A DNA stretch of 64,000 nucleotides from an uncultured Solibacteraceae bacterium (GTDB taxonomy: Bacteria; Acidobacteriota; Vicinamibacteria; Vicinamibacterales; SCN-69-37), in NCBI GenBank assembly GCA_964423815.1, contig CAYRGW010000009.1, positions 3,467 through 67,466 on the forward strand. The letters are read 5' to 3'. A model generated the notes under the pieces. It worked only from the letters and a program-made list of their open reading frames with translations, ran no database searches and was not told where the DNA came from. The translations under genes and the position numbers were made by a program. Numbering within the stretch: the stretch's first letter is position 1; every line of letters starts with the position of its first letter. This document shows positions 8,185 through 63,107 of this stretch, piece by piece.

Positions 8185-8849
8185 TGGAGAGAGGGTACAC
8201 ATTCGGGCCCGGGCCGTTGACGCCGGCCGTCAAGGCGCTCGTGTATTCCAACATCGCCGTGTTTGTGGTGATGCTGGTGGTGCCGAGCCTGATCACCTGG
8301 ATCGGACTCATCCCCGAGCTGGTGCTGACACGTGCGTACGTCTGGCAGATCGTCACCTATCAGTTTGTCCACACCGAACCGTTTCACCTGCTGCTCAACA
8401 TGTTGACGGTCTGGATGTTCGGCGTGGATCTCGAACGCCGCTGGGGCACGATCGCGTTTGCGAAGTACTACCTCATCGTCGGCACCACGGCCGGCGTGGC
8501 CACCGTGCTGGTGTCGCTGCTGCCGATGGCGTTTGCGCAGATGTCCTATTCGGCCGTCACCATCGGGGCGTCCGGCGCCGGGTACGGCCTGTTGATGGCG
8601 TGGGGCATCGTGTTCCCCCACAGGGTCGTGCACCTGCTGGGCATCTTCCCGCTGACGGCGCGTGTGTTTGTGTTGATCATCGGCGCCATCTCGTTGTCGC
8701 AGGCCATCTCGAGCGGCGGCAACAGCGGGATCGCCCACGTCGCACACCTGGGCGGCCTTGTCGCCGGCTGGTTGTATCTGAAAACCCCGCGCCCAAAAGC
8801 CCCGCCCGCCCGGCCCCCACGCCCCGACTACATCCGGCGCGTGCACTGA
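8184..8849 (+). CDS. Rhomboid intramembrane serine protease
   Basis: WQIVTYQFVH, HLLLNML, GASG catalytic Ser, AHLGG catalytic His. ATG at 8184 overlaps the murJ stop. Confidence 0.9.
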   Translation: MERGYTFGPGPLTPAVKALVYSNIAVFVVMLVVPSLITWIGLIPELVLTRAYVWQIVTYQFVHTEPFHLLLNMLTVWMFGVDLERRWGTIAFAKYYLIVGTTAGVATVLVSLLPMAFAQMSYSAVTIGASGAGYGLLMAWGIVFPHRVVHLLGIFPLTARVFVLIIGAISLSQAISSGGNSGIAHVAHLGGLVAGWLYLKTPRPKAPPARPPRPDYIRRVH

Positions 8850-8852
8850 GAC

Positions 8853-8890
8853 GAAGTCCCGGGGTCCCGAAGTCCCGAAGTCCCGAAGTC
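8853..8890. repeat. GAAGTCCC/GGGGTCCC octamer tandem
   Basis: About 5 units directly after the rhomboid stop; same family at 23223 and 25889. Confidence 0.85.
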
Positions 8891-8894
8891 AGGA

Positions 8895-8930
8895 TTTCAA
8901 CATGGGGGGCCATGGGGATCCATGTTGAAA
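8895..8930. repeat. Short TTTCAACATG..CATGTTGAAA inverted-repeat element
   Basis: 10-bp perfect IR between convergent genes; same termini at 38965/39216 and 61034. Confidence 0.85.
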
Positions 8931-11402: not shown

Positions 11403-12458
11403 ATGCGCCGCACCTGGGGCCTCGTGGTTCTCCAGGTGCTGGCGCTCGCCGCCACGGTCGCCGCCCTGCGCGGCTCCACTCAGGCACCCATCGAAATCCT
11501 GCGGCCCGTGGGCGGGCTCTCCGCGCGTGTCTGTGACTCGTTGCATGAACCCATCGCGTTTGTGCAGGCGAGCGACGGCCGCTACTTCCTGCTCGACCGC
11601 CGGGCGCACACCATCTACAGCGTCGATCGCACGGGCACCCGCCTCACCAAGGTCATGGAAGCCGGCATGCAAAAGGGCGAAGTCCTGCAGCCGGCCGTCC
11701 TGAGCATGGCGGGAGACGATGCGTATGCGGTGACGGATGCGCCGTTTGGCCAGGAGCGGATTCAGGTCTACAACAAGAACGGATCGCAGGTCCGCGCGTT
11801 TCTCCGGCCGGGGCTGGCCAGTCCGCGCCTCACCATGGGGCCGGTGATTCTCAATGGCGTCGGATCGTTGCAGTTCACCGGGGATCGGTTCTTCATCAAT
11901 GCGCCGGAGACAGGGGCGTTGATCTCGGAGCTGAATCTCGACGGTGATCCTGTGCGGCAGGTCGGCCTGTTGCGGCCGACAGGGCATGAGGCGGATCGGA
12001 ACGTACACCTCGCGCTCAACATCGGCCTGGCGCTTCCGGACGCCAAGGGCGGCGTCACGTTTGTGTTCCAGACCGGCGTGCCGAAGTTCCGCAAGTACGA
12101 CGCGACCGGCCAACTGGTATTCGAGCGCCACATCGAGGGGCCGCACGTTGATCCGTACCTGCAGAGTCTGCCGACGACGTGGCCGACACGTAAGGCGGGT
12201 GACGGCACCTATCCCATCGTGCCGCCGATGGTGCGGACTGCGGCGCTTGATCCCGCCGGCAACCTCTGGGTCAGCCTCGCTGCACCGTACACGTATGTCT
12301 ACGACGCCTATGGCGACAAACGCCGCACCGTGCAGTTTGACGGCACGAGCGGCAGCGCGCCGGTGAGCCTGTCGTTCAGCCGCGCCTCAGGCTCGCTGCG
12401 TGCGCTCGTGCTGCCCGGGTGTTACGAATACGACGCGACCTTCACCATGAAGCCGTGA
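11403..12458 (+). CDS. Secreted hypothetical protein, probable beta-propeller
   Basis: N-terminal signal peptide; NHL-like strand repeats (RIQVYNKNGS, KYDATGQLV, LDPAGNLWV, VYDAYGD). Confidence 0.65.
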   Translation: MRRTWGLVVLQVLALAATVAALRGSTQAPIEILRPVGGLSARVCDSLHEPIAFVQASDGRYFLLDRRAHTIYSVDRTGTRLTKVMEAGMQKGEVLQPAVLSMAGDDAYAVTDAPFGQERIQVYNKNGSQVRAFLRPGLASPRLTMGPVILNGVGSLQFTGDRFFINAPETGALISELNLDGDPVRQVGLLRPTGHEADRNVHLALNIGLALPDAKGGVTFVFQTGVPKFRKYDATGQLVFERHIEGPHVDPYLQSLPTTWPTRKAGDGTYPIVPPMVRTAALDPAGNLWVSLAAPYTYVYDAYGDKRRTVQFDGTSGSAPVSLSFSRASGSLRALVLPGCYEYDATFTMKP

Positions 12459-12655
12459 AGACATGAAGGACGAGCGAGGTTGGACGGCCCGGCTCCGCCG
12501 GGTCGTCATGATCGAAGAGAGCCGACGACTGAATGCCCCACATGAATGGAGATGGGGTATTCAGTCGCCGGCTCTCTTCGATCATGACAGCCGCCAAAGG
12601 CGGCTGTCCAACCCCTCACCCTATATGCCTACATGTCTCCTGTGAAAAGCTCTTT
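12441..12655 (+). repeat. Four-way-junction structured element, copy A
   Basis: Closing stem GGTTGGAC/GTCCAACC, hairpin CCCGGC-TCC-GCCGGG, 36-bp hairpin 12505-12588, hairpin AGCCGCC-AAA-GGCGGCT. Confidence 0.8.
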
Positions 12656-16604: not shown

Positions 16605-16626
16605 TCATTGCCTCATTGCCTCATTG
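16605..16626. repeat. TCATTGCC octamer tandem (about 3 units)
   Basis: tcattgcc-tcattgcc-tcattg directly upstream of the ligase start. Confidence 0.7.
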
Positions 16627-16747
16627 GCCACGGCGGCGGGGCTAAAGCCCACGCCCTACAAGAAGAAGGCGGCGGGGCTGAAGCCCACGCCCTACAAAAA
16701 CAGGCCACGGCGGCGGGGCTAAAGCCCACGCCCTACAAGAAGAAGCC
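16626..16747 (-). repeat. Three tandem GTAG-type REP palindromes
   Basis: Minus-strand GTAGGGCGTGGGCTT(T/C)AGCCCCGCC at 16635-59, 16671-95 and 16712-36. Confidence 0.88.
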
Positions 16748-22096: not shown

Positions 22097-23219
22097 AATT
22101 CGACCGCTGCTCCTGCCCGTGGGGCTGATCGTCCTGGCGCTGACGATCTTCAACCTGCGGGTCAGCCGTGAAATGGTGGACTTCGAGGTCTACCGCACGG
22201 CCGGTCGTCGCGCGATCGCGGCGCAACCGCTGTATCAGGTCAGCGACGGCCACTACACGTTCAAATACCTGCCGACGTTTGCCGTCGGCATGGCGCCCAT
22301 GGCTGTGCTGGGCCACGACGCGGCGCGGGTCACCTGGTTCGCGTTGTCCTGCGCGTTCCTCGTGATCCTGCTGCGCTGGTCGGCCGTCATTCTGCCGGCG
22401 CGGCGATGGTCGGTGCGATCCCTGATCATCGTGGCGCTTGTCCTGCTCGCGAAGTTCTACGCGCACGAACTCACGCTCGGACAATCCAATCTGCTGCTGG
22501 CCGTATTGCTGATGGCCGGCCTCGGTGCGCTGCAGATCGACTCGCCGAAGGTGGCCGCGGTCTGTGTCGGCCTCGCGATCTTCGTCAAACCGTATGCGCT
22601 CATCCTCCTGCCGTGGCTGGTGATGTCACACGGGATGGTCGTGGGCATGGTGGGTCTGGCCACGATCCTGGTTGGCCTGTTGTTGCCGGTGGTGTTGTAC
22701 GGCTGGACGGGCAACCTGGAGCAGTTGGCCGGTTGGTGGCACATCGTCTCCTCGTCGACGGCGCCCAATCTGATCGGCGCAGACAACGTCTCGCTGGCGG
22801 CGATGTGGGCCAAGTGGATTGGTGCCGGGCCCCTGGCGGCCGGCCTCGCGGTGGTCACGATCCTGCTGCTGCTGGCGGTGGCCGTCGCCGTCTGGATGCA
22901 ACGGCGCGGCCTCGACGAACCGGACTACCTGGAGTTTGCGTTGCTCCTCCTGCTGATCCCGCTCATCTCTCCGCAGGGCTGGGACTATGTGCTCGTGCTC
23001 GCCACGCCGGCCGTGATGCTGATCACCGACCGCTGGCGGGAACTGCGCACGCCGTGGCGCTGGTGGAGCGGCACCGCGCTGATCCTCATGGGGTTCTCGC
23101 TGTTTGACGTCATGGGCCGCGCAGCCTACGGCCGGTTCATGGCCCTCTCCCTCATCACGGTCTGCGCCATCGTCATCGCCGCCACCCTCGCGCAGATTCG
23201 GCTGCGAAGACTCGCCTGA
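22086..23219 (+). CDS. Glycosyltransferase family 87 (DUF2029-like) membrane protein
   Basis: [28 protein letters not shown]; multi-TM. Confidence 0.8.
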
Positions 23220-23222
23220 GTC

Positions 23223-23254
23223 GAAGTCCCGAAGTCCCGGGGTCCCGAAGTCCC
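23223..23254. repeat. GAAGTCCC octamer tandem
   Basis: gaagtccc-gaagtccc-ggggtccc-gaagtccc after the GT87 stop. Confidence 0.85.
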
Positions 23255-23452
23255 GCTCTTGCCCGCCGTAGCAACCTGAGCCGCGTCGAAGGCGGGCGAA
23301 GGCGGGTAATCGGGTACCCGCATCGGTGTCCGAACGCGGGCAAAACGTACCCGCCACGATATTCCCCTATGCACCAAGAGTGAACTGCAGGCGACTCCGA
23401 GATGAGTCGTCTGTGTGGCACCTGCGTTGCGCTCCTCCTGCGCGGAGGGGAC

Positions 23453-23651: not shown

Positions 23652-23715
23652 AAGACGTCGGGTGTCTTTTTTGGATCTAAGCGATAGCAAAAAAAGACAC
23701 CCGACGTCTTAGACT
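23652..23715. repeat. Long palindrome family P, copy 1
   Basis: GACGTCGGGTGTCTTTTTT-loop(CTAAGCGAT)-AAAAAAGACACCCGACGTC-TTAGAC. Confidence 0.9.
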
Positions 23716-23925: not shown

Positions 23926-23989
23926 AGGACGTCGGGTGTCTTTTTTAGATCTAAGCGATAGCAAAAAAAGACACCCGACGTCTTAGACT
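23926..23989. repeat. Long palindrome family P, copy 2
   Basis: Near-identical to copy 1; contains the desaturase stop codon. Confidence 0.9.
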
Positions 23990-25884: not shown

Positions 25885-25888
25885 CTAC

Positions 25889-25928
25889 GAAGTCCCGAAG
25901 TCCCGTGGTCCCGATGTTCCGGGGTCCA
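25889..25928. repeat. Degenerate GAAGTCCC octamer tandem
   Basis: gaagtccc-gaagtccc-gtggtccc-gatgttcc-ggggtcca between atpF and the DMT gene. Confidence 0.8.
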
Positions 25929-25934
25929 GAGGCA

Positions 25935-38415: not shown

Positions 38416-38478
38416 TAGGACGTCGGGTGTCTTTTTCCGCACTAAGCGATGCAGAAAAAGACACCCGACGTCTTAGAC
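38416..38478. repeat. Long palindrome family P, copy 3
   Basis: GACGTCGGGTGTCTTTTT-CCGCACTAAGCGATGCAG-AAAAAGACACCCGACGTC-TTAGAC. Confidence 0.9.
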
Positions 38479-38487
38479 ACAGAGGAA

Positions 38488-38895
38488 CTACTCGACCCGT
38501 CCAGCGCGCACGAGGTGCAGCAGATCGACAAGCCCCGCGGACACGAGGCGACCAGGCGCGAGCGCCACCAGGAAAAACGCCTGCATCCGATTGATGTTGT
38601 CCGTGAAACGCAGCGGATGATTGATCGGCGTGCCCCAGAGGCCGATGTTGGACATATCCGGCCGGGGCGCTGCCGCGTACGCGAGCGCCAGGTAGAGCAC
38701 GGTGAACACGCCGGCCGTCAGTCGATCATCGGTGTTCGGCCAGCCACTCGCCACGTACCAGATCCACGCCGCGAGCAGAACGAGCGCCAGCAGTCCCCGA
38801 TACAGCCCGGCATGTCCAGTCCAACGCTCCGGCGGTCCATCCACACGACCCACCGGACCGGGATTGCGGCGTTCGAAAAGCCACTCAAACAGCAT
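38488..38895 (-). CDS. Hypothetical membrane protein
   Basis: Three hydrophobic segments; only plausible ORF in the gap. Confidence 0.6.
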   Translation of the reverse strand: MLFEWLFERRNPGPVGRVDGPPERWTGHAGLYRGLLALVLLAAWIWYVASGWPNTDDRLTAGVFTVLYLALAYAAAPRPDMSNIGLWGTPINHPLRFTDNINRMQAFFLVALAPGRLVSAGLVDLLHLVRAGRVE

Positions 38896-38949: not shown

Positions 38950-39218
38950 AAGAGCTGTGAGAATTTTCAACATGTAGGGCCATGGAGTTCCATGAAGGGT
39001 GAGGGCTGGGTGCCGCCTTCGGCGGCATGGGTGATCGGAGGGAAACCGTAGACGAGAATCCCTTGGCGAAAATCGAGAGGGACTCTCGTCTGCGGTTTCC
39101 CTCCGATCACCCTGGCCCGGCGGAACGCCGGGCTCCCAGCCCTGCGTCTCCGTGTCTCCGTGACTCCCTGTGAATCTGTTCTTCCCCCATGGAACCCTAT
39201 GGTCCCCATGTTGAAAAA
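38950..39218 (-). repeat. Four-way-junction structured element, copy B, with TTTCAACATG termini (MITE/REPIN-like)
   Basis: Closing stem AGGGCTGGG/CCCAGCCCT, hairpins TGCCGCC-TTC-GGCGGCA and GCCCGGCG-GAA-CGCCGGGC, 35-bp hairpin 39029-39112; terminal IR at 38965/39216. Confidence 0.82.
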
Positions 39219-39235: not shown

Positions 39236-41089
39236 TCAGCGTGCCTTGACGGCCCGCGCGATCGCCGCGGCTGAGATGCCGTAACGCTCGAGCAGTTCGT
39301 CGGGTTCGCCGCTGCGCGGAATCTCGCGCACGGCGAGGCGCTGGACGGTGAAACCCTGATCCCAGACCGCTTCCGAGACGGCGTCACCGAGACCACCCTG
39401 CGCGTAGTGATCCTCGACGGTGAGAATCCGTCCGCCGCTCGCCTTGCCGGCCGCAATCAGGCCCGCGCGATCGATCGGCTGGATGCAGTACGCATCCACC
39501 ACACGAATCGCGATGCCGTCCTTCGCGAGCAGTTCGTGCGCCTTGAGCGCTTCAAACAACGTCACACCGGCGGCCACGATCGTCGCGACGTCCTTGTCGC
39601 TCTGCCGCACCACCTTGGAGCCGCCCACGGGGAACTTCTCGTCGGTCGAATAGATGACCGGTGTCTTCGGACGTGAGCTGCGAATGTAGACCGGGCCCGG
39701 CGTCGCCGCGGCGACGGCCACGAGACGTTCCGCGCACACGGCGTCCGACGGGTAGAGCACGGTGCAGTTGGGCACCGCGCGCGCCATCGCCAGATCTTCC
39801 AGCGCCATCTGCGACGGGCCGTCTTCACCGATGGACACACCGGCGTGTGATCCACACAACTTGATGTTGAGCATCGAGATGCCCGACATCCGGATGAAGT
39901 CCGCGCCACGCTCAAGGAAACACGCAAAGCTGGACGGATACGCAATGGCCCCGCGGCTGGCGAGCCCCATCGCGGCACCGATCATCGCCTGCTCGGCGAT
40001 AAACGTCTGGTAGAACCGCTCCGGATGCAACTTCTCGAACCGATCACTGAACGTCGAATTTTTCACGTCGGCGTCCAGCGCCACGATCCGCTTGTCCACA
40101 CCACCAAGCGCGGCGAGTGCCGTGCCGTACGCTTCGCGCGTCGCGACCAGGTCACCCATCTTGTACGCCGGGGCGGGCATGGCCGCCACAAAGTCCGGCA
40201 GGGCCCCTTCCGAGCGACGGGTCGCGGGCTTCGGAATCACGGGCGCGGGATCGGATGTCGGAATAATCGCGGCCTCAAGTTCGGCGATCGCCGCATCGGC
40301 TTCCGCCCCCTTCTTGAGGGGTTTGCCGTGCCAGTTGTCCTTGTCCTCAAAAATCGAGCAGCCCTTGCCCTTGAGGGTCTTCGCGACAATCATCGTGGGC
40401 CGGCCGCTCATACCGCGCGCTTCCGCCAACGCGGCGCGCAGTTCCGAAATGTCGTGACCGTCGACCACGATGGCGTGCCAGCCGAAGGCACGGTACCGCG
40501 TCGCAAACGCGTCCACGTCGTGCGCGAACTGCGTCGCGCGGCTCTGGCCAAACGCGTTGACGTCGGTGATCGCGCAGAGGTTGTCGAGGTTGTGATTGGC
40601 GGCGACCTGCGCGGCCTCCCACACGGACCCTTCCGCACTTTCGCCGTCACCCAACAACACGTAGGTCCGGTAGTCCGACCCGATGCGGCGCGCGTTGAGC
40701 GCAATGCCGACACCGGCGGCCAATCCCTGGCCCAGCGACCCGGTCGCCACGTCCACAAACGGGAGGCGCGGCGTCGGATGCCCCTCCAGGTCGGACGTAA
40801 TCTTGCGGAGGTTCATCACGTCCTCGCGCGGAAACGCGCCGGCCGCGGCCCAGGCCGCATACAGAATCGGGGCCGCGTGGCCCTTCGACAACACGAAGCG
40901 GTCGGCCTCGGGGTGCTGCGGATCCTTTGGATCAAACCGCAATTCGTCGAAAAACAGGACCGCAAGGATGTCGGCCGCCGACAGGCAGGTCGTCGGATGC
41001 CCCGACCCGGCTTCGGTCGTGGAACGCACCGAATCGATGCGGAGTTGAGTAGCGAGGTTGTGGAGGACGTTATTGGATGGTGGAGTCAT
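39236..41089 (-). CDS. tkt: Transketolase
   Basis: GSGHP, DRFVLSKGH, EGHP, TGSLGQG, GDGE..EG, IAEQ, GEDGPSQ. Confidence 0.95.
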   Translation of the reverse strand: MTPPSNNVLHNLATQLRIDSVRSTTEAGSGHPTTCLSAADILAVLFFDELRFDPKDPQHPEADRFVLSKGHAAPILYAAWAAAGAFPREDVMNLRKITSDLEGHPTPRLPFVDVATGSLGQGLAAGVGIALNARRIGSDYRTYVLLGDGESAEGSVWEAAQVAANHNLDNLCAITDVNAFGQSRATQFAHDVDAFATRYRAFGWHAIVVDGHDISELRAALAEARGMSGRPTMIVAKTLKGKGCSIFEDKDNWHGKPLKKGAEADAAIAELEAAIIPTSDPAPVIPKPATRRSEGALPDFVAAMPAPAYKMGDLVATREAYGTALAALGGVDKRIVALDADVKNSTFSDRFEKLHPERFYQTFIAEQAMIGAAMGLASRGAIAYPSSFACFLERGADFIRMSGISMLNIKLCGSHAGVSIGEDGPSQMALEDLAMARAVPNCTVLYPSDAVCAERLVAVAAATPGPVYIRSSRPKTPVIYSTDEKFPVGGSKVVRQSDKDVATIVAAGVTLFEALKAHELLAKDGIAIRVVDAYCIQPIDRAGLIAAGKASGGRILTVEDHYAQGGLGDAVSEAVWDQGFTVQRLAVREIPRSGEPDELLERYGISAAAIARAVKAR

Positions 41090-42106: not shown

Positions 42107-42175
42107 GTAGGGCGTTGGCTGTAGGGCGTTGGCTGTAGCCACGCCATAACGGCGGACCTGAAGGTCACGCCCTAC
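42107..42175. repeat. Inverted GTAG-REP doublet (REPIN-like) plus a partial copy
   Basis: GTAGGGCGTTGGCTGTAGCCACGCC (42121-45, +) and GTAGGGCGTGACCTTCAGGTCCGCC (42151-75, -) between convergent genes. Confidence 0.85.
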
Positions 42176-42186
42176 AATGACAGGCC

Positions 42187-44679: not shown

Positions 44680-45614
44680 TGTTCGCCGCGCTCCCCAAAA
44701 CCGCCTTTTCCATTCTTGCCGGCAGTTCGATGCTCAAGTCCCTGGCATCCACGTACGGCATGCGCTCGCCCTCCAGCTTTGCGCGCCGCTTCATTGCGGG
44801 CGAAAACGTCGAGGAGGCGATCGCCGCCGCCCGCGACGTCGAACGCCAGGGCCTGCTCGTCACGCTCGACCTGCTGGGCGAGAGTGTGGCCTCGGCAGAC
44901 GAGGCCCTCGCGGCGACCAAGGCGTACATCGCCGTCATCGAGGCCATCCAGGCGTCGGGTGTGGGGCGGAACGTGTCCCTGAAGCTCACCCAACTGGGAC
45001 TTGATATCGACCAGGCGACGTGTATCGACAACCTGCGCCGCATTCTGGACGTCGCCAAGGCGGGCGATTTTTTTGTCCGCATCGACATGGAGAACTCGCC
45101 CTACACCGACCGCACACTCGACACGTTCGAGACGTTGTGGAATATCGGGTACCACAACGTGGGTGTGGTGATTCAGTCGTATCTGAAACGTTCGATGGAC
45201 GACATCCGCCGCGTGAATGCGCTGGGCGCACGCGTGCGCCTCGTCAAGGGCGCGTATCGCGAGCCGGCAAACGTGGCGTATCAGCAGAAGGCCGACGTGG
45301 ATCGCGCGTTTGTGGATCAGATGCAGGTCCTGCTGGCCGAGGGCACCTACCCCGCCATCGCCACACACGACCCGGCGATGATCGACGCCACCACGGCGTT
45401 TGCGACGCAGAAGAACATCGCAAAAGACCGCTACGAGTTCCAGATGCTCTACGGCATCCGGCGCGATCTGCAGACGTCACTGTCGGCGGCCGGGCACCCG
45501 TTCCGCGTGTATGTGCCGTTCGGCACGGAGTGGTTCCCCTACTTCATGCGCCGGCTGGGTGAACGCCCCGCCAACGTCGGCTTCATCGTCGGCAGCCTGT
45601 TGAAGGAAAAATAA
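44679..45614 (+). CDS. Monofunctional proline dehydrogenase
   Basis: RRFIAGE, SLKLTQLG, IDME, RLVKGAY, ATHD, YFMRRLGERPAN. Confidence 0.93.
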   Translation: MFAALPKTAFSILAGSSMLKSLASTYGMRSPSSFARRFIAGENVEEAIAAARDVERQGLLVTLDLLGESVASADEALAATKAYIAVIEAIQASGVGRNVSLKLTQLGLDIDQATCIDNLRRILDVAKAGDFFVRIDMENSPYTDRTLDTFETLWNIGYHNVGVVIQSYLKRSMDDIRRVNALGARVRLVKGAYREPANVAYQQKADVDRAFVDQMQVLLAEGTYPAIATHDPAMIDATTAFATQKNIAKDRYEFQMLYGIRRDLQTSLSAAGHPFRVYVPFGTEWFPYFMRRLGERPANVGFIVGSLLKEK

Positions 45615-45668
45615 TCCGTCGGGAGGCTTTTCCGGAAAGGCTCAGCCGAAAAGCCTCCCGACGGATTA
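45612..45668. repeat. Palindrome related to family P; likely bidirectional terminator
   Basis: TAATCCGTCGGGAGGCTTTT..AAAAGCCTCCCGACGGATTA, a 20-bp perfect stem. The terminal TAA triplets are the stops of both convergent genes. Confidence 0.85.
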
Positions 45669-46796
45669 TTTTTCGCACATGGCGCGGACGACGTCCACGA
45701 GCACGTCGCGGCACGTCTCGACGTCGGCCAGGGTGACATACTCTTCGATGCTGTGCAGGCCGGCGCCGCCCGGGCCAAAAATGACCGAGGGGATCCCCGC
45801 GCCGGCCAGAATCGCCGCATCGGTCCAGAACGACATGCCGGTGGGCGCGTGGTTGAGGCCACGCGCCTGCAGCACCGCCGCCATCGCCTGCACAATACGT
45901 GCGTCATCCTCCACGCGGTAGGGTGGACGCGCGGTGACCAGGCGCGCCGTCGCGGCGAACTCGTGGTCCGCAGCCTTCAGCCGCGCGAAGATGGCCTGCA
46001 CCTCGGCGACCGCGGCCTTGCCGTCTTCCCCGGTGACCGTGCGCCGTTCCATCTGGAGCGTGCAGCGATCGGGATAACTGCTCAGTTCATGACCGCCGGC
46101 GATGATCGACGCGTGCAGCGACGCCGTCCCCTGCATGGGTACGGGCTCACGCGCCTGCAGTTCACGATCACGCGCTTCGAGCCCGTTGAGGACCCGGCCC
46201 ATACGCAGAATGGCATCCCGGCCCTCGGCGGGCCGACTGCCGTGTGCGGCGCGTCCCTTGGTTTCCACCTCAAGCCACGCAAACCCCTTGTGCCCGACGG
46301 CCATGCGCAGATCGGTGGGCTCGGTGACAATCGCGGCGTCGGCCTTCCACGTCTTCACCAACGCGTCGGCGCCGATGCTCTCAAATTCCTCGTCGGCGAC
46401 ACACGCCACAATCAGACGACCACGTGACCACGTCGTCGCGAGTGCCGCCGCCGCCGCGATCATCGCGGCGACGCCGCCCTTCATGTCCTGGGCGCCACGC
46501 CCATACAGTCGCCCGTTGTCGATGAACGGAAAAAAGGGTTCGTCCATGCCGGACACACCGACCGTGTCGAGGTGTCCGCAGAACATCATGGCGGGCCCGG
46601 GCTCCCGGCCTTCAAGTACGCCGATCACGTTTGGCCGGCCCTCGGCCGCCAGCTCAATCACGACGTCGAGGCCCGCGTCACGCAGCGCCTGCGCCGCCAC
46701 CTCCGCGACCTCCGCCTCACCAGGCGCACCGGGCACCAGCGACGGATTCACCGAGTTGACAGCCACCAGGTCGGAGAGCAGACGTGTGACATCCAT
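45666..46796 (-). CDS. M20 family peptidase/deacylase (ArgE/DapE-like)
   Basis: GHLDTV, GRGAQDMKGG, ADEE, VTEPT, GLHSIEE. Confidence 0.9.
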   Translation of the reverse strand: MDVTRLLSDLVAVNSVNPSLVPGAPGEAEVAEVAAQALRDAGLDVVIELAAEGRPNVIGVLEGREPGPAMMFCGHLDTVGVSGMDEPFFPFIDNGRLYGRGAQDMKGGVAAMIAAAAALATTWSRGRLIVACVADEEFESIGADALVKTWKADAAIVTEPTDLRMAVGHKGFAWLEVETKGRAAHGSRPAEGRDAILRMGRVLNGLEARDRELQAREPVPMQGTASLHASIIAGGHELSSYPDRCTLQMERRTVTGEDGKAAVAEVQAIFARLKAADHEFAATARLVTARPPYRVEDDARIVQAMAAVLQARGLNHAPTGMSFWTDAAILAGAGIPSVIFGPGGAGLHSIEEYVTLADVETCRDVLVDVVRAMCEK

Positions 46797-61033: not shown

Positions 61034-61068
61034 TTTCAACATGGAGGGCCATGGTCCCCATGTTGAAA
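61034..61068. repeat. Short TTTCAACATG..CATGTTGAAA element
   Basis: Matches the left and right ends of the 38965-39216 element joined together; lies between convergent genes. Confidence 0.85.
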
Positions 61069-61593: not shown

Positions 61594-62376
61594 ATGAACG
61601 ACGACGAGATAAACACGTTGTACCGACTGCCGCCGGGCGAGTTTACGGCGGCGCGGAACGTGCTCGCGAAGGCGCGTGGGGCCGCAGGTGCGGCGATCAA
61701 AACGCTCGAGAAGCCGTCGTTGCCCGCGTGGGGCGTGAACCAGATCTACTGGCACGACCGATCGACGTTTGATGCGCTCATCAAAACCTCAACCGCGATG
61801 CGACAGGCGCATGTGCAGGTCATCTCGGGCCGGAGCGCCGATGTCGCCGGGGCGGAAGCGGCACACACCGCTGCTGTCAAGATCGCCGTGTCATCGGCGA
61901 GGCGACTGATTGAAGCCGCCGGTGAAAAGGTCACGCCGGCCACGATCGATGCGATCACGGAAACGCTGCAGGCGCTCCCGACAGATGACGCGCCTGGACG
62001 GCTCACCAAACCCCTCAAGCCCCTCTCGTTCTCCGCACTGTTCGCCATGGGCATCCCAGTGGTCCAGGGTCCGACAAGGTCCAGGGTCCACGGTTCCGCC
62101 AAGAAAGAGCTGGCCGAACAGGCGGCCACGCGAAGGGCCGCCGAAAAAGTCCTGAAGGCAGCAACAGCGGCGGAAGAAAAAGCTGCAGCGGCGCACGCCG
62201 AGGCGAAAAAAGCGGCGACACACGTGGAGCGCGAGTTGGCGCGTGTGCGCGACCGCGTGCAGTTTCTCGAGAAACAACGCAACGATGCCGAGGAGGTCCT
62301 GCGTCAACGTGCGCGGGCCCTTCAGGACGCCACCAACGCCCGCATCCAGGCGGCGCAGGATACTCTTCTGTCATGA
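61594..62376 (+). CDS. Hypothetical helical/coiled-coil protein
   Basis: LYRLPPGEFTAARN..KPSLPAWGVNQ N-terminus; Ala/Lys/Glu coiled-coil C-terminus. Confidence 0.7.
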   Translation: MNDDEINTLYRLPPGEFTAARNVLAKARGAAGAAIKTLEKPSLPAWGVNQIYWHDRSTFDALIKTSTAMRQAHVQVISGRSADVAGAEAAHTAAVKIAVSSARRLIEAAGEKVTPATIDAITETLQALPTDDAPGRLTKPLKPLSFSALFAMGIPVVQGPTRSRVHGSAKKELAEQAATRRAAEKVLKAATAAEEKAAAAHAEAKKAATHVERELARVRDRVQFLEKQRNDAEEVLRQRARALQDATNARIQAAQDTLLS

Positions 62377-63028: not shown

Positions 63029-63070
63029 CCACGAACCTTGGACCGTGGACCGTGTCGAACCCTGGACCAG
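63029..63070. repeat. GGTCCA(G/C) heptamer repeat, intergenic copy
   Basis: Reverse complement is ctggtccagggttcgacacggtccacggtccaaggttcgtgg. Confidence 0.75.
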
Positions 63071-63107
63071 AGGGGGATATACTAGGGAGCTTGAAAGGAC
63101 TGCGAAT

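Follow-up and report, generated by a model that had tools for sequence, protein, structure and literature searches.

The locus raised the question of what kind of element had come to lie between a transketolase gene and a short hydrophobic reading frame in an uncultured acidobacterium, and which enzyme might spread it. The window, i.e., the whole stretch of 64,000 nucleotides that was analyzed, contained a gene-less intergenic repeat of 254 bases at positions 38964-39217. The repeat began approximately 18 nt past the stop codon of the transketolase gene (39236-41089, minus strand) and was located approximately 69 nt upstream of the start of the hydrophobic ORF, which encodes 135 amino acids without a Pfam match (38488-38895, minus strand). 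An 80-aa ORF that runs across the repeat had no Pfam match either and was treated as a chance occurrence. The repeat was bounded by outer terminal inverted repeats (38964-38974 and 39207-39217) that were complementary at 11 of 11 positions. Its left T-type terminal arm (38964-38996, plus strand) comprised this 11-bp terminal repeat and three CATG units with a period of 10 nt (at 38971, 38981, and 38991), and its right T-type terminal arm (39186-39217, minus strand) contained units at 39188, 39198 (TATG), and 39207, with a spacing of 10 and then 9 nt. The arms enclosed a four-way core that was composed of a closing stem (5' strand, 39002-39010; 3' strand, 39135-39143; both on the plus strand), two small hairpins, and one long hairpin. 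Hairpin 1 (39012-39026, plus strand) had a 6-bp GC stem and a triloop that reads TTC on the plus strand and GAA on the minus strand, and hairpin 2 (39116-39132, plus strand) had a 7-bp stem and a GAA triloop on the plus strand. The long hairpin (39029-39113) formed a stem of approximately 33-35 bp, with 40-nt arms within 39024-39117 that were 90% complementary; its GA motif was placed at a conserved distance and was followed, 4 nt further on, by a mismatch that recurs among copies. An internal S-type terminal arm (39148-39174, minus strand) followed the core; it was made of units with an 8-nt period, with CTCCGTG units at 39148 and 39156, and ended on the plus strand in CCTGTGAA at 39167, the internal S-type end. 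The fold z-score was -16.2 on the plus strand and -12.9 on the minus strand, and 0 of 200 shuffles were equally stable.

The only other exact plus-strand copy of CCTGTGAA in the window was found at 12639, where it forms the right end of copy A (12441-12646, minus strand). Copy A had the same four-way core, different arms and loops (TTT/GGA), and S-type ends. An earlier sequence-only reading had claimed that both copies share one core, which was confirmed, and had named outer inverted repeats, CATG-type arms, CTCCGTG repeats, and an internal end common to both copies, each of which was found in its place. It had also described GAA triloops on opposite strands. This description held for the element and its subfamily, but not for the family, in which the loops vary and flip strand. 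Among the 22 full cores in the genome holding the window (G000), the loop of hairpin 1 was TTC in 9 and hairpin 2 was G-GAA-C in 9, and the hairpin 1 loops of a related genome (G011) were mostly purine-rich (AGA, AAA, and AAG) on the strand on which G000 and G016 have TTC.

The element belonged to a large family of combinable parts. G000 contained 42 exact copies of the terminal 10-mer, and pattern scans identified approximately 106 clusters in which the modules were mixed and matched. These clusters were mostly intergenic, in a genome whose intergenic share was 10.5% by simple gene calls; they favored convergent gene pairs (37/92 vs. 251/1600) and avoided divergent ones (8/92 vs. 441/1600). 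Inward-facing ends were present in 53 clusters, and the end pairs T-T, S-S, S-T, and T-S each occurred with and without hairpin modules or core. The view of a modular, nested element with shared terminal parts was therefore upheld by the genome-wide mapping of module combinations that had been proposed as a check. Two short T-T hairpins without a core were located in the window itself (8895-8930 and 61034-61068). No target-site duplication was detected above shuffles, as the mean flanking direct repeat was 2.46 vs. 2.24 ± 0.17 for 52 elements whose ends were set by pattern only, and no clean empty site marked the element ends. Of the 19 other genus genomes, 14 contained similar DNA, which was nearly confined to the genus; in a sample of 151 genomes of the order, the hairpin 1 pattern gave 0-3 matches per genome outside the genus, which was similar to the reversed control.

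The window also harbored further repeats. Tandem 8-nt arrays of the GAAGTCCC type (8846-8893, 23216-23263, and 25888-25929) constituted another repeat family, and the array at 8846-8893 abutted a short T-T hairpin. An inverted pair of 7-nt tandem arrays was located at 62055-62096 and 63033-63074, the former in frame within an ORF of 260 aa (61594-62376), such that the repeat appears to be translated inside a protein.

The arms and cores of this family bracketed a gene of the GxxExxY family in related genomes. A match to PF13366 was present in 12 of the 20 genus genomes, and this physical association was observed at most of the 19 genus loci with a GxxExxY gene: arms of the T or S type occurred at 15 of them and on both sides at 13, and a full core occurred at six, on both sides at three. 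Among the 3826 called genes of G000 that served as background, 15 had arms on both sides and none had a core on both sides; the module patterns were partly written after some GxxExxY flanks had been viewed. The arms of the element itself resembled those of the gene: the left arm was identical at 27 of 32 positions to the one that precedes the GxxExxY gene in L046, the internal S-type arm at 24 of 27 to the cassette arm in L050, and the right arm at 23 of 31 to the arms flanking the genes in L036 and L038. The core matched one protein clade. The six core-linked proteins formed one side of a branch (SH-aLRT 91) in a quick tree with few columns, and none of the 79 other GxxExxY loci contained a core. 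In an out-of-sample set of 80 metagenome loci, a T arm and a core directly upstream occurred at L163 alone; it was the single hit at 64% identity, the others being at 45-58%, and its clade membership was judged by identity alone.

Arms were not restricted to the genus. Of the 78 GxxExxY loci considered from other lineages, 55 had the gene between inverted arms, compared with 0 of 65 shifted controls; two of the 80 loci had been left out (one duplicate of a genus locus and one Vicinamibacterales locus). An arm profile built from these other lineages was found on both flanks at 48/78 loci (control, 1/65). On the ends in the window, this profile did not score above chance (best 10.4 bits, with a null maximum averaging 12); T and S are thus diverged variants that are tied to the gene through the genus loci only.

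Gene-plus-arms cassettes were present or absent at orthologous sites. The neighbors of the core-linked genes mapped to different locations in G000, where the sites orthologous to L050, L052, and L047 lacked the cassette and were empty or held other cargo. The GxxExxY gene of G000 itself (G000:C38) was enclosed by inverted arms of the S2 type and was neighbored by two cassettes with internal deletions, the pieces of which were 77-95% identical. The full cassette between the two deleted copies spanned G000:C38:13854-15103 (L001), and according to tblastn and visual inspection the corresponding gene interval also held a GxxExxY gene in L035, L042, L048, and L049. In L052 (850-2170; G008), a degenerate GxxExxY gene was embedded in long tandem S-type arrays on both sides, and this cassette, for which the orthologous G000 site was empty, was located directly behind a terminator-like hairpin. 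The G000 site orthologous to the core-flanked gene of G011 (L047), G000:C2:18491-19364, contained a small gene between RAYT-type repeats that by eye looks like a lytic transglycosylase.

The GxxExxY protein has approximately 132 aa. The L046 protein matched TIGR04256 (138.8 bits) and PF13366 (136.9 bits), both above the family cut-off; PF13366 is listed with the function 'Unknown' in the available text of PMC3424549. Residues E29, D69, E79, and K81 were invariant in 12 of 12 aligned proteins, and the predicted structure (pLDDT 85), with an alpha/beta core, matched PD-(D/E)xK folds. The top Foldseek row was the Hjc resolvase 2wiw, a weak match (E 0.013, TM 0.41). In VIA-align, the best Z was 7.5 and Hjc reached Z 5.7, below at least six other rows with Z 6.2-7.5, and a sequence search of the PDB with the protein gave no match. 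The protein is accordingly described here as a small predicted PD-(D/E)xK nuclease; because the match to Hjc is generic, junction cutting is a putative activity.

A sigma-54-like motif of the -24/-12 type was located 11-13 nt before the start in 14 of the 14 genus GxxExxY genes with a definable start (L001, L035-L043, L046-L048, and L051) and also upstream in L163. The same motif occurred in none of the 78 GxxExxY genes of other lineages and in 16 of 3750 G000 genes; the promoter pattern was written after some GxxExxY flanks had been viewed. G000 contained an RpoN domain. From the position of the motif, the genus genes are likely expressed near-leaderless and under host control from a sigma-54 promoter.

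The site itself was polymorphic. A contig of 211 nt from run X3 (study P2) joined 38991 to 39199 without a mismatch and so omitted the 207 nt of 38992-39198, which left a collapsed T-T allele with a 3-nt microhomology in a conspecific population. This was the sole X3 contig over both unique flanks, and its depth of 9.52 was similar to that of its neighbors; as one assembled contig rather than reads, it could also represent a library skip. The long form was entered by contigs of runs X4 (study P3) and X5. None of the contigs from the four runs spanned 39053-39094 in the middle of the long hairpin, an absence to which no weight is given. At the orthologous site of G018, the closest relative listed, inspection by eye showed a short and degenerate T-T hairpin that shares the outer flank. 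Of the remaining 17 genus genomes in which transketolase matched, 16 had no module and one had a distant S-pattern match. Collapse between CATG units is the simpler direction of change, but the core may have been gained instead.

These results suggest that the element family was probably spread and reshuffled by GxxExxY, the predicted PD-(D/E)xK nuclease whose genes are bracketed by the same arms and core in related genomes. The protein would bind the phased CAYG arrays of the arms and may cut at or near extruded branched DNA, into which either strand could fold. Subsequent repair with other family members as templates would exchange modules, preserve the likeness between the arms of each long hairpin, and capture other (RAYT-type) palindromes in the loop, and it may also collapse elements between CATG units. 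The sigma-54 promoter would allow the host to time the nuclease activity. A wider proposal is more doubtful and is put forward tentatively: GxxExxY may represent a class of its own among the mobile DNA of bacteria and archaea, in which a 130-residue restriction-fold nuclease reads phased CAYG arms and cuts branched DNA, the gene and hundreds of gene-less hairpins spread by cut-and-copy repair, and one clade in the genus gained a dedicated four-way-junction substrate and sigma-54 control.

GxxExxY might instead be a passenger, in which case the arms and cores would owe their spread to recombination by the host, to replication slippage, or to an unrelated transposase. We consider this unlikely, although it is the best of the alternatives. 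It would account for the richness in cores of G000, G018, and G001, none of which held the core-clade gene. In G000, the gene was not found by tblastn and a family search of the assembly, the smallest contig of which has 1517 bases, and it was also absent from G018 and G001, which had 9 and 8 hairpin 1 matches, respectively. Slippage alone would, moreover, suffice for the collapse between CATG units. However, arms flank GxxExxY across many phyla, the arm type tracks the protein clade, the catalytic residues are invariant, and a target-site duplication is lacking, all of which count against a passenger. The clade gene was also present in 4 of the 7 genomes with at least six hairpin 1 matches and in none of the 13 with three or fewer, counts in which kin are not independent and to which the gene's own flanks add matches. 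As for spread by GxxExxY in G000, a core-clade gene could lie unassembled between two repeat copies. The only full-length GxxExxY gene of G000 has S2-type arms, and ends of this type occurred in 5 of the 39 hairpin-bearing clusters, including copy A; judging from these ends, the resident gene could therefore serve in trans.

The sequence-only reading had taken the two small hairpins for single-stranded DNA recognition sites of an HUH nuclease. The element would then be of the REP/REPIN type and be moved as single-stranded DNA by a RAYT/TnpA-Y1 enzyme that reads the GAA hairpins. The placement behind gene ends, with its preference for convergent pairs, is REP-like, Y1_Tnp genes were present in 20 of 20 genus genomes, and the available text of PMC6006769 describes atypical structures on the flanks of class 3 TnpA-Y1 genes in Acidobacteria. 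Nevertheless, among the 36 Y1_Tnp/RAYT matches in these 20 genomes, 31 loci were fetched and none was flanked by T, S, or core; the loci viewed had repeats of their own, as did the two Y1/RAYT genes of G000. An HUH enzyme was consequently rejected as the bracketed partner, and the place that the earlier reading had assigned to it is taken by the GxxExxY gene of the PD-(D/E)xK family. Moreover, the GAA loops are variable and change strand among family members, and GTAG followed the terminus at only 2 of the 42 exact T ends. Movement by an HUH enzyme is therefore very improbable.

RAYT-type repeats were found within some family members and elsewhere in the window. A RAYT-type palindrome was located inside the long-hairpin loop at C1, C68, L028, L046, and L051, and the same palindrome flanks the RAYT gene of L141. 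In the window, a second palindrome family (38419-38487, and also 23654-23715 and 23928-23989) has the sequence that flanks the Y1/RAYT gene of L141 and that is nested within the long hairpin's loop in several four-way cores; the palindrome at 38419-38487 was absent in the contigs of runs X3 and X4. GTAG-type REPs at 16626-16745 and 42142-42184 were of the kind that flanks a RAYT-like gene at G000:C15, and a long palindrome at 45587-45693 belonged to the type flanking the RAYT gene at G000:C52.

Whether the core acts as DNA or RNA was addressed with 47 distinct cores (22 from G000 and 25 from the loci of relatives). Their long hairpins were 93% Watson-Crick paired (1624/1745), and the long-hairpin arms of different copies were only approximately 60% alike. 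Mismatches in these hairpins comprised 37 G·T and 47 A·C, whereas the tRNA stems of G000 had 35 and 3, respectively. The mismatch located 4 nt beyond the GA motif was present in 23 of the 39 cores with this motif (A·C in 13, G·T in 8, and other in 2). The balance of G·T and A·C mismatches, together with the strand-flipping loops, is consistent with a fold that is available to both strands and with copying at the level of DNA, and the absence of a G·U bias in the stems argues against RNA. The DNA-level behavior that the earlier reading had favored is thus borne out by stems without strand bias and by the collapsed allele in the conspecific population. A structured non-coding RNA or mRNA 3'-end element, retained for its RNA fold, would explain the very stable fold, the conserved core geometry (an inner length of 84-93 nt in 32 of the 39 cores with the GA motif), and the location just behind stop codons, but it is highly unlikely given that neither strand has a G·U excess, that Rfam gave 0 matches at the gathering score in the window, that the full element is absent at the orthologous site in 18 of the 18 other genus genomes with a transketolase match, and that the core is missing in a conspecific population.

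GxxExxY (PF13366/TIGR04256) is widespread and has no listed function, and the probable link to repeats would provide the first function for it that can be tested. No literature linking GxxExxY to repeats was found in a search that mostly covered papers outside subscription. If GxxExxY is indeed the enzyme that drives these repeats, HUH transposases are not the sole drivers of REP-like DNA, since a restriction-fold nuclease can take the same role, and unexplained hairpins between genes, which form a large class, gain a partner gene. For such a test the element supplies ready material: its arms are defined, its branched core is conserved, and both a matching clade of proteins and a naturally collapsed allele are available.

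Bacterial MITEs such as Correia/NEMIS and ERIC are short and non-coding, with terminal inverted repeats, polymorphic presence, and deleted derivatives. The element shares all of these features. Unlike classical MITEs, it lacks a target-site duplication, and its ends are interchangeable modules. Hjc, Cas4, and other small PD-(D/E)xK nucleases resemble GxxExxY in the predicted fold and the E-D-ExK residues, although the fold match to Hjc is generic (Z 5.7, against a best Z of 7.5) and is accompanied by no sequence match in the PDB. The paired tandem octa- and heptanucleotide sites of Geobacter metallireducens (PMC2700814) are likewise arrays of short tandem units that are paired on opposite strands with variable spacing; compared by description, in the available text they are regulator binding sites with other consensus units and have no link to a nuclease. 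TIRtrons/TIRYTs, which are known from Acidobacteria according to the accessible part of PMC3733652, also consist of a gene inside long terminal inverted repeats that form a dispersed family as well. The same source describes TIRYTs as tyrosine transposases, and none of the 31 such loci in the genus carries the arms of the element. The element also resembles REPIN/REP sequences with RAYT genes (REPtrons), which, as far as the available texts of PMC3116915 and PMC6006769 describe them, are dispersed intergenic inverted doublets that fold as hairpins, are enriched behind gene ends, and bracket a small low-copy nuclease gene with the same repeats. On the other hand, the bracketed gene is here a GxxExxY gene of the PD-(D/E)xK family and not an HUH tyrosine transposase, the ends are tandem 8-10-nt CAYG arrays and not GTAG-footed stems, and a four-way core whose loops flip strand is carried as cargo. 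By the features tested, the element is outside the REP-RAYT and classical MITE families, and it probably works like a REPIN with a non-HUH partner.
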